Virus record (IMG/VR): IMGVR_UViG_3300033149_001989
Span: 32,001 to 96,000 of that record
Length of the DNA stretch: 64,000 nt
Direction: 5' to 3' (one strand)
Origin: a virus
Shown here: piece after piece, positions 8,726 to 61,520 of the stretch
How positions within the stretch are numbered: position 1 is the first letter of the stretch
How the letters are laid out: each line of letters begins with the position of its first letter
The notes under the pieces: generated by a model
The model's input: the letters and a program-made list of their open reading frames with translations, nothing else
Database searches by the model: none
Told to the model about the DNA's origin: nothing
Program-made: the position numbers and the translations under genes

Positions 8726-9005
8726 AACTTTCTCCGATAGGCACAAAAAACCCGCAAGTAAACTGTCTTTGTTTACTAGGGTCACCTTCATCTTCTTCTG
8801 GATAACCTTTAGTGACACCTCTTGTGTCACAGTCATCGCATTTCCAAACTGACCTGTTAGAAGCAATGTGTGTGTATAGGTATCTCATCGGTTTCTTACA
8901 AACAGGACATCTCGGAACATTGCTAAATCTAATTGCTTTATTTTCCACTGGTCCCTTATGGGCGGTATCATTCTTGTTTTTTGGCCTTTTCTTTATATAA
9001 ATCAT
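8655..9005 (-). CDS. Hypothetical Zn-ribbon protein
   Basis: CPVC...WKCDDC. Confidence 0.45.
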   Translation of the reverse strand: MIYIKKRPKNKNDTAHKGPVENKAIRFSNVPRCPVCKKPMRYLYTHIASNRSVWKCDDCDTRGVTKGYPEEDEGDPSKQRQFTCGFFVPIGESYGHRGIRGCPFKVQDKQAEISWV

Positions 9006-9153
9006 CCCGCTGCTCAGGCGTTAGTTTCCTGAATGCTTCGAAACAATTATTTTTGGTAAAACACGAAAATCTAAATAGGCACTTGTTGCACAGATTCGTG
9101 CCGAGAAAAGGTTGGTCTCCCCTTAGTAATGCTGCGTTGTTCATTTGAACCAT
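8968..9153 (-). CDS. Small protein carrying CxxCxxRFxC[ST] module
   Basis: CNKCLFRFSCFT. Confidence 0.65.
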   Translation of the reverse strand: MVQMNNAALLRGDQPFLGTNLCNKCLFRFSCFTKNNCFEAFRKLTPEQRDDLYKEKAKKQE

Positions 9154-9373
9154 TCCTTAATCGCCAACGTTTCTCCCTTAGCGTCTTAACTCTTTTATTA
9201 ATACCCTCTGCGGGAAAGGTAATTACTAAATCGCCATTTGACGTATAACATTTATATCTCAAAGCGCACCCATCACAATTAGTACAGTCGCACCAGAAAG
9301 AATCGTATTGTTTACCATTTGTATCTCGGATGAGTATTTGTCTACACTTCATTGGTTTCTGTGTCGGCAGCAC
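9071..9373 (-). CDS. Small protein carrying CxxCxxRFxC[ST] module
   Basis: CTNCDGCALRYKCYT. Confidence 0.65.
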   Translation of the reverse strand: MLPTQKPMKCRQILIRDTNGKQYDSFWCDCTNCDGCALRYKCYTSNGDLVITFPAEGINKRVKTLREKRWRLRNGSNEQRSITKGRPTFSRHESVQQVPI

Positions 9374-9813
9374 TCACTAACATCAATAAATGGAATCTCG
9401 TCAACTAAACCATTATATCCGTGAATAAGTTCTTGTAATTGGTCTTCATTCATATTCGATAATTCAGCAGAATCAATCATATGTATAATATTATCACGCA
9501 ATTCCCTGGCTTCTAAATAAATCTGATGAATACGGGTATCTTTCCAAGGTGCTATATCATTTAATAGTTTTTCTTGGTAAGATTTAATATCATTTATTTT
9601 ACCCTCATCGAATAAGGATACCGCAACGTTATGTGCCCACCTATTATCATTAAATCTACTTGATTGTGCAGGATAGTGTAGTAGCGTTGTCTCTTCAACA
9701 AATTTTACTTTGTGGCGACGGTGCATATTGCTTATCGCTTGAAACGTAGCGTAGGTACGTCTCTTCAATACAGAGTCAGGTCTACCGAATAATTTCATTG
9801 TTTTCCTTTTCAT
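9349..9813 (-). CDS. Hypothetical protein
   Basis: GGAG SD and ATG just downstream of the tmRNA. Confidence 0.6.
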   Translation of the reverse strand: MKRKTMKLFGRPDSVLKRRTYATFQAISNMHRRHKVKFVEETTLLHYPAQSSRFNDNRWAHNVAVSLFDEGKINDIKSYQEKLLNDIAPWKDTRIHQIYLEARELRDNIIHMIDSAELSNMNEDQLQELIHGYNGLVDEIPFIDVSECCRHRNQ

Positions 9814-9824
9814 TATATCTCCTG

Positions 9825-10164
9825 TGGAGGTGGGGAAGGGTCGAACTTCCCGTCCAATATGTCTCCCATTATAATTTCTACAGGTTTAGTTACTTTTTCA
9901 ATTTTCGAAAGGTTTTAGAAAGCAACATCTAAAACTCTCTAGCTTAATTATTTTTACAGTCTTATTAAGCAGCGACTGGTTCTGCTGAGAAACTTTCTTC
10001 TATAACAGCCTCAGCGTCACCGTTGTAGAAGAGTAGCCCTTCATCGAGAACTACGATAAGTACTGATTTCTCAGTTATTTTTTGTGGGCTGTTTTTAATC
10101 TGTTCCCACCTAAGATTACCTGCTTATATAATAAGCCAACACATTGTCGAATCCATGCACCCCC
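9825..10164 (-). ncRNA. ssrA: tmRNA
   Basis: 5' GGGGGTGCATGGATTCGAC; 3' GACGGGAAGTTCGACCCTTCCCCACCTCCA with G3:U pair; resume context AAATAACT-GAG; tag ORF 10072-9968 ending ...PVAA-TAA-TAA. Confidence 0.92.
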
Positions 10165-10311
10165 GTGTTATCTATGCTCTGCTAAGGTATCCCGAACTAT
10201 TTTAAAATAACGGGATAGGACATTTCTGCATTTCTTATTTCAAAAATATTTTTATTTTTACCCCTATATATACTATATCAGTTTTATCCGACTTTGACCA
10301 GTTTAAACTAG

Positions 10312-10719
10312 TCATAAATTAACAAATTTCTTTTGTTTCGTGCTTTTTTCTCGCCAAACGTTTATCAAGTCTATGTCATCTGGTTTTAAACTAAAGATAA
10401 AGTCGAAAAGTAACATATCAAATTCGTTTGAGACATAAATGTCGGGCAAAGCAAGTACATCTGTCCCGACATCCAGCACGGGTTCCTTACTTTCAGGACC
10501 ATCAATGTAAATACCTATACAATTCTTTCTAATGACTATTTCAGCCTTAAATTGATAGTTTTTTTGTAATGGCTCAATTGGAATTGGTAAGAACATCTCA
10601 CCACTCCAGGGAAGACGTTTTAGAGTACGTTGAGCTATTGTTACTTCGTTAAGTAATTTATCATCAATGGTTAATTTATAGGGTTCACCAAAAACCCCAC
10701 ACACAAATAATGTTTTCAT
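10312..10719 (-). CDS. Hypothetical protein
   Basis: ATGA overlap with upstream gene. Confidence 0.6.
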   Translation of the reverse strand: MKTLFVCGVFGEPYKLTIDDKLLNEVTIAQRTLKRLPWSGEMFLPIPIEPLQKNYQFKAEIVIRKNCIGIYIDGPESKEPVLDVGTDVLALPDIYVSNEFDMLLFDFIFSLKPDDIDLINVWREKSTKQKKFVNL

Positions 10720-10913
10720 TTTCTTCTAGCCTTCTCAACTATAATACCGATGTCACCAATCTTCTTACATTTAAACCACTCTCTAGCTGTGACAAATATG
10801 TATTTGTCACGACACGTCATACACCGAAAACGAAGCAAGCAAGAGGCACACTCACCGTGACACCAAGAATAACTGATGTATTTATCATCTTCAGTAACTA
10901 ATCTTCTAATCAT
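10716..10913 (-). CDS. Small protein carrying CxxCxxRFxC[ST] module
   Basis: CHGECASCLLRFRCMT; promoter immediately upstream. Confidence 0.65.
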   Translation of the reverse strand: MIRRLVTEDDKYISYSWCHGECASCLLRFRCMTCRDKYIFVTAREWFKCKKIGDIGIIVEKARRK

Positions 10914-10925
10914 CTTCCCATTATA

Positions 10926-10954
10926 ATTATATCATACGAAGGCAAAGTTGTCAA
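10926..10954 (-). promoter_or_regulatory. sigma70-type promoter
   Basis: TTGACA-17nt-TATAAT with extended TG. Confidence 0.8.
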
Positions 10955-11028
10955 GCCTTAAACGTAGGTTTTTATATATAAGTGCCGACATTACGGAACG
11001 AAGTTTGAAAAAATTTTTATAATTTTGG

Positions 11029-11052
11029 GAATGGGACGGCAAGTTTAAAAAT
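11029..11052 (+). repeat. 24-25 bp direct repeat, copy 1
   Basis: GAATGGGACGGCAAGTTTAAAAAT; copy 2 at 15901-15925 has one extra A. Confidence 0.8.
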
Positions 11053-20541: not shown

Positions 20542-21278
20542 CATCATTCTTGGCATATAATAAAATAAAGACATTGAGAAAATGGGAGGAAACCGTGCTT
20601 AGTAACAGCGAAGTAGCTAACCAATTTGCACTTGGCAAAACACGTGGTAAAAGCAATCGTATGACGATTGAGGGTGATACTCTCTACTCTTACTCGGCAC
20701 CGATTGCGATTAGAGATGGTGAGAAATTTATTATCTCGAATAGAGCGTCATTTCTAGGGGGATGCCCCTATTCAATGACTACCTCTCATCATATATCTTG
20801 CGTTTACTATGCTTGTAAAGGAAAGGGCACGATAAGGCTGGTTGATGGTTGGGCAGAGCGTGGTAAACCTGAGTTTTATATTCCTCAATTACCTAGTTAC
20901 AAGACAGTCAGTGGGCTTATAAGAGGGTTTGTTACCCATCCATATTGGAATGGCACATGGACAGGAATATGGCACCCCGACACAGGAACTAAGGAAGTCC
21001 ATTGGCGAACAAAGAACGACCAACTTATCTCGCCAGAGGGTGATGTAGTAGCATTTCGTGAGTATATAAGACAGCCTTGTAATAAGGACTGTGATAATTG
21101 CCTTGCTCGGTTTCTTTGTCTGTCTAATAAAGAATTATTTAATGGGTATGTTGTAACAATTATAAAGGATAGCCCATACTTCGAAAAAGTAAATTATCAC
21201 ATTCAGAAAGCATACAAGTCTTATCGGTGTAAGTATCCCTCTAACGATTTGATGCTAGTTAGAAATACATATAAGTAA
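20538..21278 (+). CDS. Hypothetical protein carrying CxxCxxRFxC[ST] module (true start probably GTG about 20595)
   Basis: CNKDCDNCLARFLCLS; the annotated TTG is the -35 box of promoter 20538-20566. Confidence 0.65.
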   Translation: MTSFLAYNKIKTLRKWEETVLSNSEVANQFALGKTRGKSNRMTIEGDTLYSYSAPIAIRDGEKFIISNRASFLGGCPYSMTTSHHISCVYYACKGKGTIRLVDGWAERGKPEFYIPQLPSYKTVSGLIRGFVTHPYWNGTWTGIWHPDTGTKEVHWRTKNDQLISPEGDVVAFREYIRQPCNKDCDNCLARFLCLSNKELFNGYVVTIIKDSPYFEKVNYHIQKAYKSYRCKYPSNDLMLVRNTYK

Positions 21279-24534: not shown

Positions 24535-24810
24535 ATGAAACCAAGAGGCGACACAAATTGTAATGATTGTCCAAGACGTTTTGAGTGCTTTACTGGTAAA
24601 GGTGAAGCTTGCCCGACTATAAATGGTAGTGAGATAACCTATTGTTATCCTTGCTACAATAATGTTTGTATTGGGCTTAGTAAAGATGATACTAATGTAT
24701 TTTGGAAATATAGAATAACACCCGACCAAATGCTAAAGTTGGTACAACGAGCTAAGTTTCGCACTTACAAGAAATATAATAGAATTTATTTAGAGGTATT
24801 AGATGAGTAA
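24535..24810 (+). CDS. Small protein carrying CxxCxxRFxC[ST] module (N-terminal)
   Basis: CNDCPRRFECFT. Confidence 0.7.
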   Translation: MKPRGDTNCNDCPRRFECFTGKGEACPTINGSEITYCYPCYNNVCIGLSKDDTNVFWKYRITPDQMLKLVQRAKFRTYKKYNRIYLEVLDE

Positions 24811-25132
24811 AGGCAGTGTTGTAAATCCAAAAGATGTTGTCATCAAAGTTACTGAGATAGAAGATGAAAAAGGTAAGCCAATTGTAGTAGTACTTCCTGT
24901 TGCTGCTGGTGGCAGGAAAGAATTGTGGATAATGTCTGATGTTCGTTGTATGGATAAGGACACCGATGTTTGTAATAAATGCCGTCTGCGTTATCAATGT
25001 TATAGTGGTAATGTTCTCAAGATAGATTATCTTGATACATTTGACCCCAATGATTTAACTCCTTTGAGCAGGAAGATTGAAGCACATTTAAGACGGTACA
25101 AACCAGAGGTTGACAGTAAGCAGGGCAAGTGA
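24803..25132 (+). CDS. Small protein carrying CxxCxxRFxC[ST] module
   Basis: CNKCRLRYQCYS. Confidence 0.7.
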   Translation: MSKGSVVNPKDVVIKVTEIEDEKGKPIVVVLPVAAGGRKELWIMSDVRCMDKDTDVCNKCRLRYQCYSGNVLKIDYLDTFDPNDLTPLSRKIEAHLRRYKPEVDSKQGK

Positions 25133-25146: not shown

Positions 25147-25860
25147 ATGAAGTTTTATTGTAATCGCTGTAAATCTGCATTTACCACTTTCAGTAAAGAG
25201 GGTGGTGAAGCCAAGAGGAAAGAAAGGGAGTTTGCCTTTTCTCACGGAATTGAGAATAAAATGAGATGCCCAAAGTGTGGTGCATCTAATCCGCCCACAA
25301 GACTTGCTAACCCAAAGTATCAAAAACACTACCGCACAAGGTACCAACCGAAGCCAAGATATGCTACTGGTGAAGAAGATTATACTCCACCAACGATTAT
25401 CTTGCATCCAGATTGTCAAAAACGGATAATTAGTTCGGTGGGCAGTATTGGTGGTATGAAGGTTGTTTGTGAAGGATGCCCCCAAGTATTTAACTGCTGG
25501 ACTGGAAATGTTGATGATGGGTTGTGTAGCGAAATAAAGGCACCCGATGCGGACAAGGTAAAAGAAGCAACCAAAGCAATTGTTGAGCAAGATAAAATTT
25601 TGCTACAACTACAGAAGCAGCGAGCAGTATTTGGCAAAGTGAAATTCGGTTATGAAAGCAGAAACGGTTGCTGGTATTGTCGATTCGGGGGTACAGTTTG
25701 GAAGTTAGATACTAGTGACATTGAAGCGATAAAGAGTGGTAATTTTGGCACAAAAAAGACCACAATCATCAGGAATTCCCTGAAAAATAAGAAATTATCA
25801 CTAGCTGCGGTTACGTCACTACTGTTATTAGAGATGGAAGTGGCATCAAGTGGGCGTTGA
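25147..25860 (+). CDS. Zn-ribbon protein carrying a variant module
   Basis: CNRC...CPKC; CEGCPQVFNCWT. Confidence 0.65.
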   Translation: MKFYCNRCKSAFTTFSKEGGEAKRKEREFAFSHGIENKMRCPKCGASNPPTRLANPKYQKHYRTRYQPKPRYATGEEDYTPPTIILHPDCQKRIISSVGSIGGMKVVCEGCPQVFNCWTGNVDDGLCSEIKAPDADKVKEATKAIVEQDKILLQLQKQRAVFGKVKFGYESRNGCWYCRFGGTVWKLDTSDIEAIKSGNFGTKKTTIIRNSLKNKKLSLAAVTSLLLLEMEVASSGR

Positions 25861-25897: not shown

Positions 25898-26230
25898 ATG
25901 AAAACCAGAGAAAATGATTTTGAGCATTATGTAAAGTGTCATTGTGGCTGGGAAGGGTTCTCCGCATGGATGATACACGGTTATGAGGGGTATGGGCACG
26001 GTGAAGATTGTGATGTTGAACCGATGGATTACTGCCCAAAATGTCGCACACCAGAAATAATGGTTGAGGCAATAGTTGAATGTCACGGTGATTGTCTGAA
26101 TTGCTCAGATAGGTTTCTATGCTTGACTGTGTTCGACAAGTTGCCTGTCCTACGGAAACATTATGACGAAGACTCTCGTCAAAAAAGCAATACCAAATTC
26201 TATAAAGGAGAGGATAATGGCAAGAAGTAG
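25898..26230 (+). CDS. Small protein carrying CxxCxxRFxC[ST] module
   Basis: CHGDCLNCSDRFLCLT. Confidence 0.65.
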   Translation: MKTRENDFEHYVKCHCGWEGFSAWMIHGYEGYGHGEDCDVEPMDYCPKCRTPEIMVEAIVECHGDCLNCSDRFLCLTVFDKLPVLRKHYDEDSRQKSNTKFYKGEDNGKK

Positions 26231-30970: not shown

Positions 30971-31279
30971 TTGTCGAAGTTGCCAATTACTATTGAGGGG
31001 TATCTCGGTAATGATAACCAAGAAGTTGACCGTGACGAATACGGCAGAATTGTGGAGAATTTTTACTATCTTGGTTGTCCTAATCTGGATAGTGAGCATA
31101 AATTAGGTTGGTATGGACAACCAAGGTTTATCTATGATGTAGAGAAAGATATTACAGATATACTACAAAACAATCTCGGAAAGTATATTAGAATAACCAT
31201 TGAGGCAGTCGAAATCGGGGGCAGGGCGGAATGTGAGGTTTGTAAGCGGAGATTTGAATGTCTGACCAAAATAAAATAA
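30971..31279 (+). CDS. Small protein carrying CxxCxxRFxC[ST] module (C-terminal)
   Basis: CEVCKRRFECLTKIK*. Confidence 0.7.
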   Translation: MSKLPITIEGYLGNDNQEVDRDEYGRIVENFYYLGCPNLDSEHKLGWYGQPRFIYDVEKDITDILQNNLGKYIRITIEAVEIGGRAECEVCKRRFECLTKIK

Positions 31280-31740
31280 CTAGGCACAAAATTGTACTAT
31301 GCTCTAACTGCGGTTTTACGCACACAAATGTTAAACCGTATGCCACAGTAGATATGCGGGGCAATAATGCCGTTATGGTCATCAAAGCGTTATGCCCCGA
31401 ATGTCGAAAGGAGCAATTGAAGAACGAGACTCGTTTAGTAAATTGTGCTTATTGTGGATTAACGAAAGGAGAGAAACTACACCCAACTCTGATTGAACGG
31501 AGGGTGTTTGACGGGCAGAACACTTGCAATTTCTTTATTCAACTATGTGATGATTGCAAGAAGATACCTCATAACATAATTCGAGAAAAATTAGATAAAC
31601 AACTACAAAGCCTATGTAATAGTTGTGATGATAGGTTTAAATGCTTCACTGCACAACACACGGCTCCGATGAAAAGTTACCCCACAAGGGATGGGGTTCA
31701 CAGGAATACAAGGTCGAAGCGATTTAGGAGGATAGTATGA
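31258..31740 (+). CDS. Multi-Zn-ribbon protein carrying CxxCxxRFxC[ST] module
   Basis: Four CxxC pairs, then CNSCDDRFKCFT. Confidence 0.7.
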   Translation: MSDQNKITRHKIVLCSNCGFTHTNVKPYATVDMRGNNAVMVIKALCPECRKEQLKNETRLVNCAYCGLTKGEKLHPTLIERRVFDGQNTCNFFIQLCDDCKKIPHNIIREKLDKQLQSLCNSCDDRFKCFTAQHTAPMKSYPTRDGVHRNTRSKRFRRIV

Positions 31741-32047: not shown

Positions 32048-32383
32048 ATGAAATTTGTAAGTGGAATAGTAATAAAAAGAATGATTTGCCCAAAGTGTGG
32101 TAATGTAGATAAATTCTACGTGGATGCACAAAAAACTATGGTTAGGGTAGTTCTCACGTTTGGAAAGGAGGGGGTAGAGTTAGATGACTCATTTCCCCAA
32201 GATGTAGAAATATTCCCAACAAGTTGCTATGAGTGCGGTGCCAATGTTAAATATCAGGGTTTTATATTAAAAGAAAAGAGTGACAAAGTATGTCAACATT
32301 GTGTGAACAGGTTTAAGTGTTTTACTGATAAGAATGAGTGCCTTGGGTTTCAGTTTGAACAGGAAAAAGTAGACCTGCTTTGA
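32048..32383 (+). CDS. Zn-ribbon protein carrying CxxCxxRFxC[ST] module
   Basis: CPKC...CYEC; CQHCVNRFKCFT. Confidence 0.7.
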   Translation: MKFVSGIVIKRMICPKCGNVDKFYVDAQKTMVRVVLTFGKEGVELDDSFPQDVEIFPTSCYECGANVKYQGFILKEKSDKVCQHCVNRFKCFTDKNECLGFQFEQEKVDLL

Positions 32384-32443: not shown

Positions 32444-32818
32444 ATGAAAAAATACAATTTCTTTTGTGAAGTTCCTTCCCAATCTAATCCTAACAAGACC
32501 TATAAAATTAAAGTAGACGAAAAAGGTATGTTTTCGTGTTCATGTCCTAGTTGGATATTCAATCAACGTGGAAATCGGACTTGTAAACACATAGATAAAT
32601 TGCGGGGAGACGGCTTACATTTAGATGGTAAAGGGCAGTTAATAGAAGGTAAGATGCTTACTATTGTTGATAAGGAATATGGTTGGTATAATAAAGCACC
32701 GCTACTTTGCCAAAACTATCCTGAACAGTGTAATGATTGTAAAATGCGTTTCATCTGCTGGTCGCAGCGTGAGGCTGAATTTAGTCGAGAACAACTCAAA
32801 GAGGCTGGAAGAATATAA
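32444..32818 (+). CDS. SWIM Zn-finger protein carrying CxxCxxRFxC[ST] module
   Basis: VPSQS...Y...SCSCPSW...TCKHI (SWIM); CNDCKMRFICWS. Confidence 0.75.
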   Translation: MKKYNFFCEVPSQSNPNKTYKIKVDEKGMFSCSCPSWIFNQRGNRTCKHIDKLRGDGLHLDGKGQLIEGKMLTIVDKEYGWYNKAPLLCQNYPEQCNDCKMRFICWSQREAEFSREQLKEAGRI

Positions 32819-32905: not shown

Positions 32906-33250
32906 TTGTTTAAGGTTCACATTTGGGAAGATGTGAAAATGAAAAAGATAAAAATAGGATATGGCGTTGAACTGATAAAAGATAAAACACTGTTCCCCAC
33001 AAGGTACGGCAGAACTAGAGAAAAGGAGTTTAAGTCTAGCAGTAGAGGTGTGGTAATTGATGTAAAAACTGTTTCCACTGGTAGTGGTTATCGTTATTAT
33101 AAGATAAAGAAATATAGGATTGACTTTGGTAACGATAATTTATTTTGGGCACAGTTTAGTGATTTGCGGAAATGTCAAAATATGCGAGATAACGTGAATA
33201 TTTGTGATACTTGCGAATTAAGATTTAAATGTTTTACAGGTGAAAAATGA
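32906..33250 (+). CDS. Small protein carrying CxxCxxRFxC[ST] module (C-terminal)
   Basis: CDTCELRFKCFTGEK*. Confidence 0.7.
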   Translation: MFKVHIWEDVKMKKIKIGYGVELIKDKTLFPTRYGRTREKEFKSSSRGVVIDVKTVSTGSGYRYYKIKKYRIDFGNDNLFWAQFSDLRKCQNMRDNVNICDTCELRFKCFTGEK

Positions 33251-33739: not shown

Positions 33740-34210
33740 GTGCTGAACATTGGAGAGAGAATGAAATTTAATATAAGTATGGGGTATCATAAATACTTTA
33801 ATCAGACCATCGAGGCTGAAACTGAGGAAGAAGCAAAGAAACAGGCTGATGAACTCAGGAAAAAGGTCTATGAGGAGATTATGTCTGATGCCATAATGGC
33901 AGAGTTGAAACCTAATGTTGTTCTTTCTGATGATAACTTCCGCCTTAGAGAAGGTGCGATTTGCCTTGTTCGTAGATGGAGTAAGTGGTTTCCTGCCAGG
34001 GTTATTTATAGCAATCGGAACTGGCGCTATTGGGGTTACGACCATAGGTTTCAATTCTTGCACAATGGTCAGGGTGTGTGGCTTACTAATAGAAATAAGA
34101 CGATAAACGAGAGAATTGGTAAAGTTTTGTGTGAGGATGGTAAAATTGGTAAGGAACAGTGTGAACATTGTGTGGCTCGGTTCTACTGCTATTCGGAGAG
34201 AAACAAATAG
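33740..34210 (+). CDS. Protein carrying CxxCxxRFxC[ST] module (C-terminal)
   Basis: CEHCVARFYCYSERNK*. Confidence 0.7.
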   Translation: MLNIGERMKFNISMGYHKYFNQTIEAETEEEAKKQADELRKKVYEEIMSDAIMAELKPNVVLSDDNFRLREGAICLVRRWSKWFPARVIYSNRNWRYWGYDHRFQFLHNGQGVWLTNRNKTINERIGKVLCEDGKIGKEQCEHCVARFYCYSERNK

Positions 34211-37377: not shown

Positions 37378-37737
37378 ATGAAGTGTGAAGAACTAGAGCG
37401 GCGTATCAAGATTTTAGAGGACACTGTTGATATTTTAAAACAAAGAGTAACAAGATTAGACCATGATACTAATGATTACACTCTTGGATTGGTTATAAAG
37501 ATAAACGAAACAGTGGATAAAATAGTCGCCATTAGAACAGTTAGAACCCATCTTAGGTTAGGGCTGAGGGAGTCTAAAGAAATAGTTGACAGGGCACCTA
37601 CCACAATTAAAGGATTAGATAGTAAAACGGCTAAAGCGTTGATGAATGATTTAAACACTATTGGGGTATCCGCTTATCTTTGTGATTATAATTGTAGTAA
37701 ATGCTATTACAGATTTCAATGTTGGAGTAACAGATGA
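37378..37737 (+). CDS. Ribosomal protein L7/L12 C-terminal-domain protein with C-terminal CxxCxxRFxC[ST] module
   Basis: KIVAIRTVRTHLRLGLRESKEIVDRAPTTIKGLDSKTAKAL...IG; then CDYNCSKCYYRFQCWS. Confidence 0.75.
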   Translation: MKCEELERRIKILEDTVDILKQRVTRLDHDTNDYTLGLVIKINETVDKIVAIRTVRTHLRLGLRESKEIVDRAPTTIKGLDSKTAKALMNDLNTIGVSAYLCDYNCSKCYYRFQCWSNR

Positions 37738-39349: not shown

Positions 39350-39883
39350 ATGCACATGGTAGTTAGAGTCCTAGTATTTGCCAAAGATGCGGAGGAGGCA
39401 GTGAAGATAGCAGGAGATGCTCTTTACAGTATGTGTGGAGACGGTATGCCTTTTGATTACTACAATTTGTTTGATAACGAGGCTGCTTCTGAAAGGTGGG
39501 GTGAACTACCAGTTGTTATGAGGGTGTGCAATAAGATGGGAACAAAAAGATGTGATAACTGCCCCGACCGCTTCAAATGCTATACAGATAGGCAAGCCTA
39601 CGACCTGCTCGAAGAAGGGATACAGGCTTCAGAGAGGGAATTTTATCGCTATCTAACCGACCTACGTAAATGCTTTTACAAGAAAGACAAAAAGAAACTA
39701 ATAGATGATGGTCATTTTAGATACCTCTGCTATAAACTTGGTGAATATGGGGGTTCGTCTATTTACTTGTATAATGAAGAAGGAGAAGGTATACGTTCTC
39801 GAAAAGAATTAGAAGATATTCTGGTGCACGCTGATAGAGAAGATGAAATTCTATATATAATTCCAGCAGATGTGCATTATTAA
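39350..39883 (+). CDS. Hypothetical protein with internal CxxCxxRFxC[ST] module
   Basis: MH...FDYY...RWG...CDNCPDRFKCYT...IPADVHY. Confidence 0.7.
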   Translation: MHMVVRVLVFAKDAEEAVKIAGDALYSMCGDGMPFDYYNLFDNEAASERWGELPVVMRVCNKMGTKRCDNCPDRFKCYTDRQAYDLLEEGIQASEREFYRYLTDLRKCFYKKDKKKLIDDGHFRYLCYKLGEYGGSSIYLYNEEGEGIRSRKELEDILVHADREDEILYIIPADVHY

Positions 39884-42547: not shown

Positions 42548-42987
42548 CCTTAATAAAAATGGCCATGGACGAAAAAGAATTGAACCAGAAAATAAAAGAC
42601 GGGAGGTGTATTTGTGATGCTTGTGCCAGACGGTTTATCTGTTGGACACAAAAAAGAGCGTTCAGTGAACCAGCTTATCAATCTTTATATGAGGTTCATA
42701 TCCAAGAGGGTAAAAGTCATGAAGAGGCTATTGCTCAGGTAAGAAGTTTTGTTGAACATGAATGTTCTACTGCAATACAAATAGCCGAAAGAGGCAAAAG
42801 AGCAGAAGTGAAGGATTGTTGGGTTAAAGAACGGAAATTGCATCCCTCATATTCGAAGCAAGATAGGTGGGTATATGATAAATTATCATCGGTTAGAGAC
42901 TCAACGAGGTCGGTTGATGAGTTTAAAAAAGAAATAACAGATTTAAAAAAGAAAATGCGGAAAGCGTTTTATGGAAAAGATGCCTAG
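42523..42987 (+). CDS. Protein carrying CxxCxxRFxC[ST] module
   Basis: CICDACARRFICWT. Confidence 0.7.
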   Translation: MESSKHRLTLIKMAMDEKELNQKIKDGRCICDACARRFICWTQKRAFSEPAYQSLYEVHIQEGKSHEEAIAQVRSFVEHECSTAIQIAERGKRAEVKDCWVKERKLHPSYSKQDRWVYDKLSSVRDSTRSVDEFKKEITDLKKKMRKAFYGKDA

Positions 42988-44476: not shown

Positions 44477-44868
44477 AATCTTTATCTAAAGGAATCGTAA
44501 AAAAAGTTAAACCTATTGGGAAAGTTAATCGAAACATTGTAAGACCGATGGACGGAGAACGCATTGTCTTTCGGGTAATAAGTAGACACCCAAAATTCTA
44601 CTATGACCAAGACTATGGGTGCAAACCAGAAAAGGTAGAAGATTGCGATACTTGTCCCTATAAATTCGAATGTTTTACCATAGGAAGGCATACCAATTGG
44701 GATGGTAGTGACCTTATTCAAATAGAATTTAAGGGTAAGACACTTGGTATTTTCCCAAGATACTGGAAGACACCAGAACCAACAACAAACGAACTTGAGG
44801 CATATCTTTGGGGGGAGTCTAATGGTAGGCTTCAAATGAGGACTTCTAGGGGTAGTAGTTGGAGATAA
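44473..44868 (+). CDS. Protein carrying CxxCxx[RK]FxC[ST] module
   Basis: CDTCPYKFECFT. Confidence 0.7.
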   Translation: MKSLSKGIVKKVKPIGKVNRNIVRPMDGERIVFRVISRHPKFYYDQDYGCKPEKVEDCDTCPYKFECFTIGRHTNWDGSDLIQIEFKGKTLGIFPRYWKTPEPTTNELEAYLWGESNGRLQMRTSRGSSWR

Positions 44869-46266: not shown

Positions 46267-46707
46267 GTGGGAGTTGGTAATAGGCAAAGATATAATGTGG
46301 TTTGTAGTGTTAGCATTTATAAGTCAAGAAGTGAGGAAATTGTTGCAACAAAAGAGGAGGCTGAGCGGCTTTTGGAGTCCCTACAGGATGAGGTTCGGGC
46401 AATGGTTGATATTGAGAAGGAATTGCGGGTACATGTTACCAAGAACAATTACTTGAAAGCAGGAGATTTTGTAAGAGTAAACCATAATGGGAAACCCTGT
46501 ATAGCACGTATAATACGGCTACGAGAATACACTTACAGAGGTACAAAATATAACCTAACACTTGATGCTGCTGGAACTATATTGAAAGTTAAATGCGGAC
46601 TTCGTATTCCAAATAATATTGTTCTGGAATGGTTGTGCGATGGTAAATTATCAAATTACTGTAATGAGTGCGAAAACAGATTTTATTGTATGACGAGTAA
46701 AAGATGA
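46267..46707 (+). CDS. Protein carrying CxxCxxRFxC[ST] module (C-terminal)
   Basis: CNECENRFYCMTSKR*. Confidence 0.7.
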   Translation: MGVGNRQRYNVVCSVSIYKSRSEEIVATKEEAERLLESLQDEVRAMVDIEKELRVHVTKNNYLKAGDFVRVNHNGKPCIARIIRLREYTYRGTKYNLTLDAAGTILKVKCGLRIPNNIVLEWLCDGKLSNYCNECENRFYCMTSKR

Positions 46708-47084
46708 AAATAAGAAATGGATTTGTAAGTAATAGTAGTAGTTCATCTTTTGTGGTGGCGTTACATGACCTATCACTTAAACAAGTAGGCATGATACTTA
46801 ATCATCTTGAATGGGGTAAGAAGCTTGGTATAGAAGGTATAGAATACTGTAAGAGTGGTGATACTTGGGACATAGAAGTTAAAAACGGTATTCTTGCAGG
46901 TGTAACCAGTATGGATAATTTTGATATGCAGAATTTTTTAGATAAGATTGGTGTCTCTACCGCCAAGTTTGGTCACAGTAATGGTACGTGGCTTCTTAAA
47001 GAAGATTATCCTAATGAGTGTAATCAAGATTGTGAAAATTACCATATGAGGTTCATTTGCTTAACAAATGATTGGATAAGATAA
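46704..47084 (+). CDS. MKIRxGFVSNSSSSSF-type phage protein with degenerate module
   Basis: MKIRNGFVSNSSSSSF; CNQDCENYHMRFICLT. Confidence 0.7.
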   Translation: MKIRNGFVSNSSSSSFVVALHDLSLKQVGMILNHLEWGKKLGIEGIEYCKSGDTWDIEVKNGILAGVTSMDNFDMQNFLDKIGVSTAKFGHSNGTWLLKEDYPNECNQDCENYHMRFICLTNDWIR

Positions 47085-47364: not shown

Positions 47365-47709
47365 GTGAAAGTGAAAGTGGACGAAGTTAAAGTTGTTTTG
47401 GAGTGTGGAGAAATTATTCACACTATGAAATGCGATAGTTGCCCACATAGATTTTTGTGTTGGACACATAAAGGAATAACGTTTTATCCAAATCAAATGG
47501 ATATAACGGATAATCTTAATATGGGTAGAAGAGTTAATATAACAGTAAGTATTAATAGAGCACCCTGCATACCACAATCGAAAATGCTCGGTATACCTAT
47601 GGTAATATATGTTGATAACGTACCTGCGTTTAAGGGAATTGTAACTAGACAATCATATGAGTTTTCTAAAGACGGGCAGGAAATGTCAATTTATGTCAAT
47701 TTGTGGTGA
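47365..47709 (+). CDS. Protein carrying CxxCxxRFxC[ST] module
   Basis: CDSCPHRFLCWT. Confidence 0.7.
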   Translation: MKVKVDEVKVVLECGEIIHTMKCDSCPHRFLCWTHKGITFYPNQMDITDNLNMGRRVNITVSINRAPCIPQSKMLGIPMVIYVDNVPAFKGIVTRQSYEFSKDGQEMSIYVNLW

Positions 47710-47918
47710 ATCAAATATTGGTCTGTGATACTTGTAAGTATAGGTTTCGTTGTTGGACAGTAAATGCAAACTATTGCCCGCTGACAAAATTAGAGAGTTT
47801 TCGGGGTAAATGGTTTAATGAGGTTGTACCTTATTTAAGACAAATGGAATTGGATGAGATAATATTACTAAAAGATATGGGTTTAATAGATATTATTGTG
47901 GATGGTAGAAATGCCTAG
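47703..47918 (+). CDS. Small protein carrying CxxCxxRFxC[ST] module (N-terminal)
   Basis: CDTCKYRFRCWT. Confidence 0.7.
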   Translation: MVNQILVCDTCKYRFRCWTVNANYCPLTKLESFRGKWFNEVVPYLRQMELDEIILLKDMGLIDIIVDGRNA

Positions 47919-50115: not shown

Positions 50116-50657
50116 AAGTAATAAAACCAAAAAAACCGAAACAATATAATTATGAACTTCGAAAAAAGCGGTGGCAACAAACAGTTAAAATACACGGTTT
50201 TCCAATTACTGCTAGAATAAAACCTACAGCACACAAACAGTATTGTTTTTTATGTCGTAAATTAATAGAAAAGGGTGAACCACAGATGTCGGTGGAGGCT
50301 GGTCTTTGGTACTCTTGGATAAAAAATGGTAAGTTAGAACATCACTTTGCTTACACTCCACTTTACGATTCCCCTGTGTTGGTAAAACCAAGAATTATAA
50401 ACTATGACGAAGTATCTGGTGTCTCAAAGAAAATATATGTTCAGAGAAAGATTTATTTACATACTGATTGTTACGCTTGCATTATGAACAGAATGTGGAT
50501 AAAGATGGGGCTTAATTATTTGGTTAATCAAACACTATGTGATTCTTGTAAAAATAGGTTTAACTGCTATACAGGTAATCTTAATGTAAACCTAACTGAT
50601 ATAACATATCGTAAACCAACCTATATACCGTCAAGACCATGTGAGGTCAAGATGTAA
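50097..50657 (+). CDS. Zn-finger protein carrying CxxCxxRFxC[ST] module
   Basis: CFLC..IEKGE...HTDC; CDSCKNRFNCYT. Confidence 0.7.
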   Translation: MVQLGMKVIKPKKPKQYNYELRKKRWQQTVKIHGFPITARIKPTAHKQYCFLCRKLIEKGEPQMSVEAGLWYSWIKNGKLEHHFAYTPLYDSPVLVKPRIINYDEVSGVSKKIYVQRKIYLHTDCYACIMNRMWIKMGLNYLVNQTLCDSCKNRFNCYTGNLNVNLTDITYRKPTYIPSRPCEVKM

Positions 50658-55162: not shown

Positions 55163-55585
55163 GTGCAGATATTTGATTGTAATAACTGCCAGTATAGATT
55201 TAAATGTTTTACTAGCAAATATAGACCAAAAGTTGTAACACTAAATTGGAAAATATCTTTTAGGTGTGCAGATTGTAAACACGCTTATTTTAATGGTATA
55301 GTTACTGGTAGTTATAGTTGGGACGCTGGTCATGTTGGGTTGTGCCGATTAAGAAATATGATAGTTCACAAGAATTCTTGTGCTTGTGACATCTTCTACA
55401 CAGACAGTAAAGATATTTCACGTCACACTGCTGGCAGGGAAAGGTCAATAAAGCAAGCACAAAAGGAGCTTAAGTCAGTATTAAATAGAAAGCACACCAG
55501 AACTAAATTACCAAAATATTGTCTAAATACTGAGGGAATTCCAAGGTCTCTACTAGAATATTTAAGTAGTGATGATGATTTGTGA
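55163..55585 (+). CDS. Cys-rich protein with N-terminal module (paralog A)
   Basis: CNNCQYRFKCFT...RCADC...GLC.L.N..VH..S...LPKYC. Confidence 0.7.
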   Translation: MQIFDCNNCQYRFKCFTSKYRPKVVTLNWKISFRCADCKHAYFNGIVTGSYSWDAGHVGLCRLRNMIVHKNSCACDIFYTDSKDISRHTAGRERSIKQAQKELKSVLNRKHTRTKLPKYCLNTEGIPRSLLEYLSSDDDL

Positions 55586-55937
55586 TAATTGTAAGTATCG
55601 TTATAAATGTTATACTGTACCTGATAAGAGTAGACCGCAGATAGTAAACGGTGTAAGATGGCAACCAGCACTTAGGTGTGGTATGTGCAGTTACGGTGAA
55701 TTTAAAAAGAAGAAAAAGAGAGGGGCATGGGGTTGGTTTACAGTTCTTGACCCAGTTGGTAAGTGTACACTCCACAACTATGTAGTACATCAATATTCTG
55801 CTAGTTGTAATGACTTTGTTGGAAAAACATCAATAAGACAGGACAAGGTTAAAAAAGGTTTAATGCAAGCTCTTAAAAAACGAAAAAATAGATTCAGATT
55901 ACCTACTTATTGTGTGGACGACAATGAACATAAATAA
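55569..55937 (+). CDS. Cys-rich protein with N-terminal module (paralog B)
   Basis: CDNCKYRYKCYT...RCGMC...GKC.L.N..VH..S...LPTYC. Confidence 0.7.
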   Translation: MMMICDNCKYRYKCYTVPDKSRPQIVNGVRWQPALRCGMCSYGEFKKKKKRGAWGWFTVLDPVGKCTLHNYVVHQYSASCNDFVGKTSIRQDKVKKGLMQALKKRKNRFRLPTYCVDDNEHK

Positions 55938-58519: not shown

Positions 58520-58791
58520 TTTGTTAAGCACATAAATTTATGTTCGCAATACTTACATTTTTGTACTAGTTGTTTTGTTCTTACTTTATTTTCCCAACAT
58601 TCCCAACAAGGACGTAATTGCCTTGAATAGTTTGCATTGTGATATTTATTTGGACATAAATGGTGAACCTCATTACTAAATCCATATTTTACATCCCACT
58701 TAAAGAATTCTCTGCAAGTTAAACAGAATCCATACTTAGGATTAAAATCTTTCCATCGAGGCTGTTTCCAATTTGTTATTAAGTCATCCAT
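58510..58791 (-). CDS. Cys-rich protein carrying the module (C-terminal)
   Basis: ATG 58791 right after tRNA-Thr; CKYCEHKFMCLT. Confidence 0.65.
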   Translation of the reverse strand: MDDLITNWKQPRWKDFNPKYGFCLTCREFFKWDVKYGFSNEVHHLCPNKYHNANYSRQLRPCWECWENKVRTKQLVQKCKYCEHKFMCLTNAE

Positions 58792-59262: not shown

Positions 59263-59323
59263 TGGTCTGGGTGGTTGAATTCGAACCAACGACCTCCTGG
59301 CTCTGTCACTAACGTACACCCAG
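59263..59323 (-). pseudogene. Truncated tRNA-like gene (acceptor stem, T-arm and CCA intact; D and anticodon arms collapsed)
   Basis: CTGGGTG...GTTGG-TTCGAAT-TCAAC-CACCCAG-A-CCA; 61 nt; Pro-like C1:G72, A73. Confidence 0.7.
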
Positions 59324-59324
59324 A

Positions 59325-59400
59325 TGGTCAGGGTGGGAGAATTTGAATCTCCTCTAAATGCTCCCAAAGCACTTGTGCTACCGTTAAACACTACACCCTG
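59325..59400 (-). tRNA. tRNA-Pro(TGG)
   Basis: Loop TT-TGG-GA, encoded CCA. Confidence 0.9.
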
Positions 59401-59434
59401 TACATTCCGATTACCTAACACATATTCCTCTTCT

Positions 59435-60034: not shown

Positions 60035-60108
60035 TGGTGGAGGTTACGAGACTCGAACTCGTCTTAATGCCTTGCAAGGGCATTGTTCTCCCGCTGAACT
60101 AAACCCCC
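60035..60108 (-). tRNA. tRNA-Ala(TGC)
   Basis: G3:U70, loop CT-TGC-AA, encoded CCA. Confidence 0.92.
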
Positions 60109-60214
60109 TTTATTTAATATCTCTTCCCAAGTCAAACCGAGATTACGCATACACCAATGTACTGCCTTGTGGCAAATACCACATTTGTGCGTCAGTTATA
60201 CTATAATCATCCAT

Positions 60215-60306
60215 TGGTGGGAGAGGTAGGACTTGAACCTACAACGTTTACCCTGTGGGTGGGAGTTTTACAGACTCCTGCCTTCACCAATTCGGCTCAC
60301 TCTCCC
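60215..60306 (-). tRNA. tRNA-Tyr(GTA)
   Basis: Loop CT-GTA-AA, long variable arm, encoded CCA. Confidence 0.9.
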
Positions 60307-60352
60307 TAATGTTCCCAAATTGAGGTGGTTTAAATTCTTTAGAGCTACCTCT

Positions 60353-60487
60353 CAGGGTTTTCAGCAGACCATCTACCTTCCACAGCGGATACAGCACCAT
60401 GATGATTGCCGTTCACTCAAACTGGTTAGATTTTCCCGCACCTGCCCCTAGCTACGGCTAGTTAGGTGTATCTGCTTACTAACCCTG
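60353..60487 (-). ncRNA. Candidate structured ncRNA inside the tRNA array (unassigned)
   Basis: Closing stems CAGGGTT/AACCCTG and AGCAGAT/GTCTGCT; inner CACCT/AGGTG and CTAGC-CGTA-GCTAG. Confidence 0.45.
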
Positions 60488-60562
60488 TGTCGGTGATGAG
60501 ATTCGAACTCACACTGAGTAGATTTTAAGTCTACTACCTCTGCCAAATTGGGTTACACCGAC
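60488..60562 (-). tRNA. tRNA-Leu(TAA), short variable loop
   Basis: Loop CT-TAA-AA, A73. Confidence 0.85.
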
Positions 60563-60895
60563 TTAATCCAACCAACCTTTCAGGTATCGTGACTTTCTAA
60601 TTGCCAAATCAACTTCTGCAAACTGGTCAATCACATCTAGCATCTGACGTGCTTCTCTAATAGGAATATAACCCCAATGCCTTCGAGGATTACCGCACAC
60701 ACAACAAGAACAGGGAACTCTGGTTTTTCTATAAATTCCTAGAAATCTCTCAATTTCATAATCTGTAAACTTGTACCTTGTACCAGATTGTTTTTTATTT
60801 CTAGGATTAAACCCGTGCCATTTCTTGAAAACTTTGGTGGCTACCTTATTGGCAATGACTAATCTATTTCCACGCACGAAACCTCCGTTGCTCAA
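60563..60895 (-). CDS. Hypothetical phage protein
   Basis: KTRVPCSCCVCGNPRR. Confidence 0.6.
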   Translation of the reverse strand: MSNGGFVRGNRLVIANKVATKVFKKWHGFNPRNKKQSGTRYKFTDYEIERFLGIYRKTRVPCSCCVCGNPRRHWGYIPIREARQMLDVIDQFAEVDLAIRKSRYLKGWLD

Positions 60896-60928
60896 TCTAC
60901 ATATTTATCGCTATCACCTCAGTTGGCT

Positions 60929-61007
60929 TGGCGGGAGTGGAAGGACTTGAACCCTCATTACCTCGTTTTGGAGACGAATATTTTTTATCCAATTAAACTA
61001 CACTCCC
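60929..61007 (-). tRNA. tRNA-Trp(CCA)
   Basis: Loop CT-CCA-AA, G73, encoded CCA. Confidence 0.88.
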
Positions 61008-61014
61008 TTAATAG

Positions 61015-61088
61015 TACCCAGGGAGAGATTCGAACTCTCAAAATCTCGCTTTTGAGGCGAACACGTCTACCAATTGCGTCACCTGGGC
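61015..61088 (-). tRNA. tRNA-Leu(CAA), short variable loop
   Basis: Loop CT-CAA-AA, A73. Confidence 0.85.
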
Positions 61089-61244
61089 TTATAGGTTTTT
61101 TCGTTCACAATATATGATATAAGACTTTTATTTATCGCACAACAGGGTATATGACACCCCACACCTTCTTGCTAATCTAATTTCCTCGGCTTGTTCTTCG
61201 ATATTCTTCTTCATTATGACAAGGTATAATCACTACCGCATCTG

Positions 61245-61317
61245 AGCGGGTGATGGGTTTCGAACCCACTACCTTCTGGACGGCAACCAAACGTTCATCC
61301 AAATGAACTTCACCCGC
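61245..61317 (-). tRNA. tRNA-Gly(GCC)
   Basis: GCGGGTG/CACCCGC-T; loop TT-GCC-GT. Confidence 0.88.
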
Positions 61318-61520
61318 TTATTTCTTTTTCCACTTTATGTTTGCTCTCAAGAATTCAAACCAAGTGTCAAAATTTACATAATGCACAACTTCTTTGTTTT
61401 GTGTATAGCAAGAAAACCTGATAGGACAACACTCACAACCCCTCTGAACATTCTACTGTGAAGGGGTATATTCCTGCTAATGCTTTATCCCTGTATCAAT
61501 GTATAATTCCATTATTCCAT
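61318..61520 (-). pseudogene. Frameshifted small gene carrying the CxxCxxRFxC[ST] module
   Basis: ...IYPFTVECSEG / GCECCPIRFSCYTQNKEVVHYVNFDTWFEFLRANIKWKKK*; module at 61437-61402. Confidence 0.55.

Follow-up and report, generated by a model that had tools for sequence, protein, structure and literature searches.

Cysteines spaced C-x2-C-x5-C are part of several described metal sites. In the C-terminal loop of endonuclease III and MutY, four cysteines within about 17 residues (C-x6-C-x2-C-x5-C), with basic residues adjacent to them, hold a [4Fe-4S] cluster; FNR uses the same cysteine spacing for a labile [4Fe-4S] cluster; and the Wbl proteins of actinobacteria and their phages display the spacing C-xn-C-x2-C-x5-C. 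For the Wbl proteins WhiD and WhiB1, a [4Fe-4S] cluster on four conserved cysteines is reported, along with cluster-dependent binding to domain 4 of the principal sigma factor (PMC7363131). The Cas4 protein Pcal_0546 is reported to carry an Fe-S cluster on Cys64, Cys200, Cys203, and Cys209, and such clusters are proposed to act as a domain-stabilizing "iron staple" (PMC4176176). Escherichia coli FeoC is reported to form a [4Fe-4S] cluster anaerobically on the segment 56-CX4CX2CX5C-70 (PMC8749426), and the zinc knuckle of EBF1, H-X3-C-X2-C-X5-C, to bind zinc and contact the DNA minor groove (PMC4312928). Here we analyze a 12-residue peptide module with this cysteine core, C-x2-C-x2-[RK]-[FY]-x-C-[FWYLM]-[TS], which recurs on small proteins encoded in bases 32001 to 96000 (64 kb; the window) of the 133,760-bp phage record IMGVR_UViG_3300033149_001989, classified in IMG/VR as a complete virus with direct terminal repeats. 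We present evidence that the module, together with an obligatory further cysteine, makes up a predicted four-ligand metal site that is attached to many unrelated small proteins of a single phage clade.

A six-frame scan of the window with the expression C..C..[RK][FY].C[FWYLM][TS] recovered 25 exact matches and 2 variants, the same peptides and open reading frames (ORFs) as had been listed in a preliminary description of this DNA, where copies were located by the low-coordinate ends of their ORFs (starts on the plus strand, stops on the minus strand, and the motif end for the last copy) and not by motif positions. The whole genome holds 29 exact copies and 2 variants, as well as 2 copies with Ala at the Thr position, both of which fall outside the window. 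The enrichment is far beyond that in shuffled sequences: in 1,000 within-protein residue shuffles of 237 crudely called genes of the whole genome, the exact motif occurred 0 times in every shuffle versus 24 times in the real proteins, and the bare C-x2-C-x5-C pattern occurred 0.9 times on average (maximum, 4) versus 31 times. At the DNA level, an Arg-only back-translated pattern matches the window 23 times versus the 0.01 expected from 100 dinucleotide shuffles. The within-protein and dinucleotide shuffles together rule out chance recurrence in a cysteine-rich proteome.

The copies differ in how they are encoded. Their Arg codons comprise AGA (10), AGG (7), CGT (6), CGG (3), and CGC (2), their Ser codons are the three unrelated codons AGT, TCG, and TCT, both Cys codons are used, and the 36-nucleotide (nt) module sites have a mean pairwise identity of 57%. 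Because the codons differ between copies, selection must act on the peptide, a point on which we agree with the preliminary description; the codon variation and the 57% mean site identity rule out a DNA repeat or a mobile DNA element. The copies lie on both strands, one per protein, and are N-terminal, C-terminal, or internal in their carriers. Only one pair of carriers in the source genome, encoded at window positions 55163 and 55569, is paralogous at the BLAST level, and this is the same pair that had been set apart earlier. The earlier remark that recognizable enzymes lack the module is also accurate: it is found in none of ribonucleotide reductase (RNR), DNA and RNA ligases, uracil-DNA glycosylase, the CCA-adding enzyme, peptide deformylase, MT-A70, Ku, and the AAA/VWA pair of the phage.

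Relatives of the source genome were found by searching IMG/VR with the degenerate DNA pattern of the module, which matched at least 117 stretches. Among the matches listed, 23 loci from nine contigs have three or more copies at the peptide level, and the single-copy loci are mostly short out-of-frame chance matches. Five related records contain between 34 and 61 copies of the DNA pattern each, against 0 for a reversed-pattern control in all five. Crude gene calling on the whole records gave the following counts.

G000 (source genome), 133,760 bp: 25 carriers among 246 genes
G001, 149 kb: 61 pattern copies; 53 carriers among 296 genes
G002, a 54.7-kb fragment: 34 pattern copies; 32 carriers among 140 genes
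G003, 134 kb: 48 pattern copies; 42 carriers among 275 genes
G004, 138.6 kb: 40 pattern copies; 35 carriers among 281 genes
G005, 152.8 kb: 45 pattern copies; 40 carriers among 301 genes

The six genomes thus encode 227 carriers, each with exactly one module copy, amounting to 10 to 23% of the crudely called genes per genome. They represent a clade of uncultured phages with genomes of about 134 to 153 kb, direct terminal repeats, and a G+C content of 37 to 42%; of the 32 BLAST families common to the five near-complete genomes, two are carrier families. No DNA relatives of the source genome were found among 50,697 deposited phage records, and the nearest protein matches in deposited phages are distant (about 25% identity for the terminases and 24 to 31% for the VWA protein). 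No close cellular relative was found for the peptide deformylase of the phage, so this gene points to no host.

The module is restricted to this clade. A profile built from 31 copies and run against 1.84 billion representative proteins gave 24 hits at E ≤0.001, of which 10 are the source genome's own proteins, while the other 14 are small metagenome proteins, all homologs of proteins in the related records (33 to 79% identity over local alignments of 17 to 86 residues). We read an apparent DUF4096 identity of one metagenome homolog as spurious, as it scores 15.0 bits against a cutoff of 34.3 and spans only 19 residues around the motif. Searched against PDB sequences, the module profile found nothing significant, the best match (E = 0.18) being a chance CxxC...C in USP9X. 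In a cellular control, the degenerate DNA pattern was run against 596 Gb of bacterial and archaeal genomes; at least 120 stretches matched, each with a single match only, and among the 80 inspected, 32 matched at the peptide level, with a median stop-to-stop frame of 36 amino acids (aa) and a stop codon inside the motif in 6 of the 32. We read these single matches in short frames, some with internal stops, as chance, and general occurrence in cellular genomes is thereby rejected.

The feature that most clearly defines the module is a cysteine that lies outside it. Each of the 227 carriers has at least one cysteine beyond the motif, and for 70 of them this is the sole addition. At the cysteine frequency of noncarriers (1.95%), 38.3 carriers would be expected to have no extra cysteine, against 0 observed (P ~ e^-43.8); among noncarriers of 50 to 200 aa, 162 of 863 have no cysteine at all. 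The nearest extra cysteine is situated ≤14 residues upstream in 154 carriers and ≤10 residues downstream in 12, and it is found only at a greater distance in 61. The upstream spacings peak at x3, x4, and x7, with exactly x3 in 29, x4 in 22, and x6 in 12 of the 227 carriers. An extra cysteine is invariant in 19 of the 26 families with three or more carriers, and in these families 49 of the 386 invariant nonmotif columns are Cys. Its place is specific to the family, and it can move even within one: in nine tandem paralogs of G001, in which the motif is always C-terminal, all nine have an extra cysteine, placed in an N-terminal strand in four, in a central "GC" in three, 3 residues upstream of the motif in one, and 5 residues downstream in one. 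Such relocation is the pattern that a required fourth ligand would leave in a folded protein. Changes of ligand type also occur, namely, in the homolog CPHCGRRLEHFS, with His for the third Cys, and in the degenerate copy of the window, with Tyr for the second Cys and His next to it. Because every carrier has an extra cysteine and this cysteine relocates within one family, we take the unit to be a four-cysteine site, C-xn-C-x2-C-x5-C. The preliminary description had recognized an Fe-S-type ligand spacing of three cysteines; the spacing holds, but the three cysteines are not the whole unit, and the obligatory fourth turns what was a possible ligand spacing into a well-supported prediction of a four-ligand metal site.

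The copies in the window are as follows (coordinates of the motif, strand, peptide, and carrier).

9055..9090, minus: CNKCLFRFSCFT, residues 22 to 33 of the 61-aa ORF 8968-9153; fourth Cys 3 residues downstream
9242..9277, minus: CDGCALRYKCYT, in the 100-aa ORF 9071-9373; two Cys just upstream (wCdCtn); weak, subthreshold PF13751 match
10815..10850, minus: CASCLLRFRCMT, in the 65-aa ORF 10716-10913; one Cys upstream with 3 residues between and another right after the motif
21090..21125, plus: CDNCLARFLCLS, internal in the 246-aa ORF 20538-21278; upstream Cys with 3 residues between
24559..24594, plus: CNDCPRRFECFT, N terminus of the 91-aa ORF 24535-24810; next Cys 5 residues downstream
24971..25006, plus: CNKCRLRYQCYS, in the 109-aa ORF 24803-25132; four Cys in total
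25468..25503, plus: CEGCPQVFNCWT, variant with Val for Arg, in the 237-aa ORF 25147-25860; 9.0 bits with the hidden Markov model of the module
26093..26128, plus: CLNCSDRFLCLT, in the 110-aa ORF 25898-26230; upstream Cys with 3 residues between and a CxxC further upstream
31232..31267, plus: CEVCKRRFECLT, 3 residues before the C terminus of the 102-aa ORF 30971-31279; residue 35 is the sole other Cys
31615..31650, plus: CNSCDDRFKCFT, in the 160-aa ORF 31258-31740; 12 Cys, with several CxxC pairs
32291..32326, plus: CQHCVNRFKCFT, in the 111-aa ORF 32048-32383, a zinc-ribbon protein
32729..32764, plus: CNDCKMRFICWS, in the 124-aa ORF 32444-32818; SWIM-like CxC...CxH, then C-x6-C-x2-C-x5-C
33203..33238, plus: CDTCELRFKCFT, C terminus of the 114-aa ORF 32906-33250
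34160..34195, plus: CEHCVARFYCYS, C terminus of the 156-aa ORF 33740-34210
37693..37728, plus: CSKCYYRFQCWS, C terminus of the 119-aa ORF 37378-37737; ribosomal L7/L12 C-terminal-like domain (PF00542; E = 8.5e-9)
39551..39586, plus: CDNCPDRFKCYT, internal in the 177-aa ORF 39350-39883
42613..42648, plus: CDACARRFICWT, near the N terminus of the 154-aa ORF 42523-42987; upstream Cys with 1 residue between
44644..44679, plus: CDTCPYKFECFT, Lys form, internal in the 131-aa ORF 44473-44868; four Cys in total
46660..46695, plus: CNECENRFYCMT, C terminus of the 146-aa ORF 46267-46707
47031..47066, plus: CENYHMRFICLT, the degenerate copy, in the 126-aa ORF 46704-47084
47431..47466, plus: CDSCPHRFLCWT, near the N terminus of the 114-aa ORF 47365-47709
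47724..47759, plus: CDTCKYRFRCWT, N terminus of the 71-aa ORF 47703-47918; four Cys in total, the fourth 5 residues downstream
50538..50573, plus: CDSCKNRFNCYT, in the 186-aa ORF 50097-50657
55178..55213, plus: CNNCQYRFKCFT, N terminus of the 140-aa ORF 55163-55585, paralog of 55569-55937
55581..55616, plus: CDNCKYRYKCYT, N terminus of the 122-aa ORF 55569-55937, paralog of 55163-55585
58522..58557, minus: CKYCEHKFMCLT, Lys form, C terminus of ORF 58510-58860, between two tRNA genes
61402..61437, minus: CECCPIRFSCYT, in the 44-codon frame 61318-61452, between tRNA-Gly and tRNA-His

The first two carrier ORFs, 8968-9153 and 9071-9373, overlap by 83 nt in different frames of the minus strand. 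The family of ORF 24803-25132 is one of the two carrier families found in all five near-complete genomes; that of ORF 32444-32818 is likewise a core family, and 6 of its 6 members are carriers. Two homologs of the zinc-ribbon carrier 32048-32383 keep the cysteines in a longer loop that lacks the RF. For the carrier with the L7/L12-like domain, a search of a 5.8-billion-protein index for homologs returned only the protein itself. ORF 58510-58860 probably begins in reality with a Met codon in the same frame near position 58791 (derived by hand), since the listed TTG start falls within tRNA-Thr. The last copy had been ascribed to a broken gene, which fits its surroundings: from the preceding stop codon to the motif, the frame has no ATG, GTG, or TTG, and it is probably a truncated or frameshifted gene.

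The logo of all 227 copies reads [EKD]-K-C-[DEN]-x-C-[KPE]-x-R-F-[KR]-C-[WYF]-T-[EST]-[RK], and beyond positions -2 to +14 the information falls to background, the flanks containing 0.05 to 0.43 bits per position; the Cys, Arg, Phe, and Thr positions reach 3.7 to 5.4 bits, and the aromatic position reaches 2.4. Conservation reaches 91% for the Arg at position 7, 93% for the Phe, and 91% for the Thr; Lys or Arg occupies position 9 in 49% of the copies, and Arg or Lys occupies position 14 in 53%, while positions 2 and 13 are often acidic. The residue after the second Cys is most often Lys (21%), Pro (16%), or Glu (14%), with Gly outside the top five. The module is found ≤8 residues from the C terminus in 73 carriers, ≤25 residues from the N terminus in 50, and internally in 104. 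With a median length of 107 aa, the carriers fall into 125 BLAST families (clusters at E ≤1e-5 and ≥50% coverage), 77 of which are singletons. In 40 of the 48 multimember families every member is a carrier, which indicates that the module is kept once acquired.

Homologs without the module do exist. A paralog family typified by the N-terminal motif MKIRxGFVSNSSSxSF is represented by 16 members, spread over five of the six genomes, among them the window ORF 46704-47084, for which no Pfam match was found; the module is appended C-terminally in three closely aligned members, including the degenerate window copy, and in two short outlier rows of the alignment, while the remaining paralogs end just before the module site or continue otherwise. 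The bodies to which the module is attached also differ in fold. In a Pfam scan of 150 of 223 carriers (E ≤0.5; 25 top families of 162), no family covered the module, and none matched more than 6 of the 150 carriers. The matches include generic zinc ribbons (≤6 carriers each), SWIM (4), the C-terminal domain of L7/L12 (3; best E = 1.5e-11), an Elf1-type ribbon (3; E = 8e-6), DDE_Tnp_1_6 (3), and Whib (2), as well as the TFIIB ribbon; in certain carriers, genuine ribbons occur apart from the module in another stretch of the protein. For the nine-paralog family, AlphaFold2 models the body as an SH3-like barrel (mean predicted local distance difference test [pLDDT] score, 85.5), for which Foldseek retrieves eL21, SH3, KOW, and NdhS structures (best E = 3e-3; TM of about 0.5); the model of the SWIM-type carrier is poor (pLDDT, 54). 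These models, built from shallow alignments (5 and 9 sequences) and devoid of metal, support different bodies with the same tail and are uninformative on ligand geometry.

In the reading we prefer, the module would be the three-cysteine core of a self-contained micro-domain of about 16 to 25 residues with four Cys ligands and the consensus C-x(n)-[EKD]-K-C-[DEN]-x-C-[KPE]-x-R-F-[KR]-C-[WYF]-T-[EST]-[RK]. The four thiolates would hold one metal center, either Zn(II) or an Fe-S cluster, with the fourth Cys contributed either from a nearby position, upstream or downstream, or from a remote segment of the protein. The module would build its second coordination sphere and a very small core of its own from its conserved Arg, Phe, aromatic, and Thr positions. 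The center would act as a staple between the body of a small protein and either a loop or one of its tails, N- or C-terminal. Within one phage clade, the module is found on no fewer than 125 families of small accessory proteins that are unrelated in sequence, and once attached it is stably inherited. That it binds a metal or an Fe-S cluster is, on the pattern of its cysteines, very probable; for the full reading, a stapling four-cysteine micro-domain with stabilization as its main role, we estimate a probability of roughly 60%. The odds between zinc and Fe-S are roughly even. By analogy, an Fe-S cluster would fit the arrangement of three close cysteines plus one anywhere, the nuclease and FeoC look-alikes (see below), and the preference for Pro or Lys over Gly directly following the second Cys. 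Zinc would fit the compact x3 form, which mirrors the EBF1 knuckle, the His substitutions, and the expense that furnishing dozens of proteins with Fe-S clusters would entail in an infected cell. The classical zinc ribbon or rubredoxin layout, with two CxxC knuckles and Gly after the second Cys, is not that of the module, which has one CxxC and a lone Cys five residues on.

Among the described sites closest to the module are those of the RecB-family nucleases (Cas4 and AddB; PF01930 and PF12705), which pair a distant Cys with a C-terminal C-x2-C-x5-C, just as the module pairs its triad with a fourth Cys. This combination of a triad and an extra Cys is found in 227 of 227 carriers, with the extra Cys only distant in 61. 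The differences are that the carriers have no nuclease core, that their fourth Cys is usually near (≤14 residues upstream in 154), and that one module is spread over 125 families and not confined to one enzyme family. PDDEXK_1 and Cas_Cas4 are not among the Pfam families matching at least 2 of the 150 carriers (25 top families of 162), nor do they occur in the carriers scanned singly. The phage has a PDDEXK_1 nuclease of its own, with Cys14 and C-terminal Cys226, Cys229, and Cys235, a pattern conserved in five genomes of the clade. Other IMG/VR contigs encode a protein of about 285 aa with a weak, below-cutoff PDDEXK_1 match (E = 0.0038), the C-terminal triad of which, C.FC[ED]FRFSCWT, is a full match to the module and recurs in contigs L028, L117, and L120. 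Its genes are as follows.

L025:878-1735, PDDEXK_1-like protein of about 285 aa
L030:3790-4641, PDDEXK_1-like protein of about 285 aa
L081:10609-11463, PDDEXK_1-like protein of about 285 aa

In the ESM Atlas, 6 of the 10 structure neighbors of the module part are RecB-like or Cas4 clusters and 1 is a FeoC cluster; given the low TM values and a low-confidence model, these neighbors serve as a lead only. FeoC (PF09012) resembles the carriers in that four cysteines are grouped into a stretch of about 15 residues close to one end of the protein; the last three are spaced as in the module, and the x4 spacing before them recurs in 22 of the 227 carriers. It differs in being a winged-helix protein of the Feo iron transporter, the archetypal motif of which, CxxGxCKxCPx4-7C (PMC8749426), has no R-F or aromatic-T, and in not being portable. 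A winged helix was not seen in the carriers, apart from one low-TM Atlas row. Wbl proteins (PF02467) and carriers are alike in their small size, four cysteines, and C-xn-C-x2-C-x5-C spacing; the Whib profile matches 2 of the 150 carriers (best E = 0.029), the common four-helix fold is absent, and the carrier folds are diverse. The EBF1/COE knuckle is similarly compact, with a C-x2-C-x5-C core and a ligand at x3 upstream, the position at which 29 of the 227 carriers have a Cys. Its first ligand is, however, a His, it is part of a large eukaryotic DNA-binding domain, and it shows no similarity beyond the spacing. The x6 spacing of endonuclease III and MutY is seen in 12 carriers, and none of the carriers has an HhH-GPD glycosylase domain.

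The IS1182-type transposases (PF13751, DDE_Tnp_1_6) provide another look-alike, with C-x(20-27)-C-x2-C-P-[FY]-x3-C-T in two genuine members (...CEGCPFKQACT... and ...CKTCPYLERCT...). DDE_Tnp_1_6 is the only Pfam model with recurring weak matches to carriers (3 of 150; best, 17.7 bits and E = 0.0044, with a cutoff of 25.1), and the recurrence is explained by the similar cysteine motif of genuine members. Unlike in these transposases, the aromatic residue and Thr of the module stand in a different register, and the carriers have no transposase domain.

Several observations weigh against a purely structural staple. The nonligand Arg, Phe, and Thr are about as conserved as the ligands over 125 families, and such conservation exceeds that of most structural zinc sites. 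The Cas4-like nuclease of the clade has C-x2-C-x5-C with quite different flanks and no R-F...aromatic-T, so these residues are not needed just to ligate a center, which leaves room for an added shared function; their strong conservation is also the best argument for one. Both AlphaFold2 models have low confidence in the module (pLDDT of <50 in model A5 and of 39 to 48 over the last 13 residues in model A6) and thus give no structural support for the staple geometry, and we infer stabilization as the primary role from the anatomy of the module only. The preliminary description had seen in the conserved face a recognition surface for one shared partner, and the same evidence is what a common docking handle would draw upon: the metal-bound R-F...aromatic-T-x-[RK] face would meet a host hub (RNA polymerase or sigma factor, the ribosome, or a chaperone, for example) or a phage machine. 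Translation- or transcription-type domains in several carriers (L7/L12 C-terminal, Elf1 and TFIIB ribbons, and the SH3/KOW-like barrel) and the cluster-dependent sigma binding reported for WhiD and WhiB1 (PMC7363131) also speak for such a handle. Nevertheless, the 32 core families of the five genomes include no obvious candidate for the partner, and the Whib model matches carriers as rarely and weakly as stated above (E of 0.029 or worse). Very small metal domains usually conserve a few core and second-sphere residues for their own folding alone, and the conserved R-F-x-C-aromatic-T is explained more simply by the folding of a mini-core and by charge balance than by a shared-partner surface, so that we view the docking handle as unlikely. 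We would treat as equally tentative a cluster- or metal-dependent plug, suggested by analogy, through which 25 to 60 proteins per phage would dock on a single hub via the conserved face or switch together with iron, oxygen, or redox state. A generic nucleic-acid anchor, in which a basic, aromatic metal knuckle would lend low-specificity affinity for DNA or RNA in the manner of the retroviral CCHC knuckle, EBF1, or the endonuclease III loop, is consistent with the basic positions 7, 9, and 14 and the two aromatic positions, with the identity of the closest sequence look-alikes as DNA enzymes (the Cas4-like nuclease and the IS1182-type transposase), and with the contact of the equally spaced EBF1 knuckle with the minor groove (PMC4312928). 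It is made doubtful by the frequent acidic residues at positions 2 and 13 and by the need of any tetrathiolate metal site for basic residues to balance its negative charge.

The remaining alternatives are more remote. If the site held an oxygen-, nitric oxide-, or iron-sensitive Fe-S cluster, its loss might unfold or expose the carriers, which would be switched or degraded as a cohort; FNR, Wbl proteins, and FeoC use the spacing for labile [4Fe-4S] clusters, and the phage encodes a ClpP-family protease and a J-domain protein. However, the metal may be zinc, the ClpP-like gene may just encode a prohead protease, 104 of the 227 copies are internal while degrons are usually at a protein end, and nothing ties the carriers to a shared regulatory fate, all of which makes a cohort switch improbable. 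More generally, the packaging signal, degron, and redox switch considered in the preliminary description are not supported, as the present data contain no supporting evidence for any of them. It might also be argued that the module is not portable and that all carriers descend from a single small protein, having diverged so far as paralogs that only the metal site is still recognizable. Tandem arrays of similar-sized small genes, such as the nine paralogs in one relative, and the 77 singletons among the 125 families, whose relationships lie beyond the reach of BLAST, would allow for this. Against it are the spread of the module over N-terminal, C-terminal, and internal positions, its junction with different recognizable folds, the MKIR...SNSSS paralogs that end cleanly just before the module, and flanks nearly free of information, so that we judge common descent of the carriers highly improbable. 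Finally, the peptide could be a posttranslational modification motif, carrying either a radical-SAM Cys-Thr thioether or a Thr/Ser phosphorylated by the kinase-like phage protein with PI3/PI4-kinase and HipA matches; position 12 is Thr or Ser in all copies defined by the expression, with Ala in the 2 extra copies only. Yet neither radical-SAM nor Fe-S biogenesis families are listed by Pfam for 91 proteins of ≥90 aa drawn from about two thirds of the genome (one listing comprising 25 of 29 families; the first third, mainly structural genes, was sampled in part), or for 10 further core proteins, and no phage-encoded partner for maturation of the site was recognized on this basis. An obligatory fourth Cys is also more readily explained by a metal site. 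We consider a modification motif extremely improbable.

The carriers of the source genome are found among small genes on both strands, adjoining genes for DNA repair and translation-related functions; neighboring genes include those for RNA ligase, the CCA-adding enzyme, peptide deformylase, and an IF3 C-terminal-domain protein. The L7/L12-like carrier, together with the IF3_C protein, the deformylase, the CCA-adding enzyme, and many tRNAs, suggests a heavy investment in translation. Other features of the genome are as follows.

1625-4702, minus: RNR large subunit, with an intein that includes a LAGLIDADG domain
17526-18203, plus: small protein matching PI3/PI4-kinase (E = 6.8e-9) and, less strongly, the HipA C terminus (E = 4.9e-4)
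23592-24506, plus: ATP-dependent DNA ligase
26163-26972, plus: Ku homolog
28263-29444, plus: MoxR-type AAA ATPase
29437-30969, plus: DUF2201 metallopeptidase/VWA protein
42971-44476, plus: uracil-DNA glycosylase-family gene, also intein bearing
62691-63209, minus: J-domain protein (PF00226; E = 9.5e-25)
57595-63903 and L003:318-10526: tRNA array with 26 genes, of which 17 belong to the window; tRNA-Cys(GCA) is among the 26

Small protein genes, some of them encoding module carriers, are wedged between individual tRNAs of the array. The ligase and Ku genes, 1.7 kb apart with three module carriers between them, are a phage-encoded end-joining pair. The AAA ATPase and VWA protein genes overlap and are kept in five of five near-complete genomes; in other systems, pairs of the MoxR AAA/VWA type act as maturation chaperones. 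The J-domain protein has zero Cys and hence no counterpart of the Cys-rich zinc-finger region of DnaJ, and the matches of the small protein at 17526-18203 suggest that it is a phage kinase. A further Hint/intein match occurs in the replication region outside the window. The part of the genome from 96 to 134 kb (L003 and L004) is a replication and nucleotide block with Pfam matches, here listed for the block as a whole and not by gene, to DruA (Druantia), cREC_REC, RVT_3/RNase H, ThyX, RecA, dCMP deaminase, and the dATP/dGTP diphosphohydrolase N-terminal domain.

The module appears to be undescribed so far, in keeping with the view taken in the preliminary description: no published account of it was found in the full-text literature covered (subscription journals and supplements lie outside that coverage). 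For a phage, it is highly unusual that one micro-domain with a strict signature occurs on 10 to 23% of the crudely called genes and is distributed over at least 125 unrelated families. With all 14 non-self hits among 1.84 billion proteins being homologs of the related records' proteins, the signature can serve to mark these uncultured phages sharply. If the module is only a stabilizing staple, this phage lineage makes many tiny, fast-evolving proteins foldable with one ready-made clamp, and the clamp would be a compact module for protein engineering. If the center is an Fe-S cluster, the Fe-S assembly of the host would come under a heavy, previously unrecognized load during infection. If the conserved face instead binds one partner, the module would mark a cohort of effectors converging on a single target and make dozens of "hypothetical" genes tractable; and were the plug to prove true, it would be a proteome-scale version of the Wbl-sigma interaction and a new viral way to address or coregulate a cohort of effectors.

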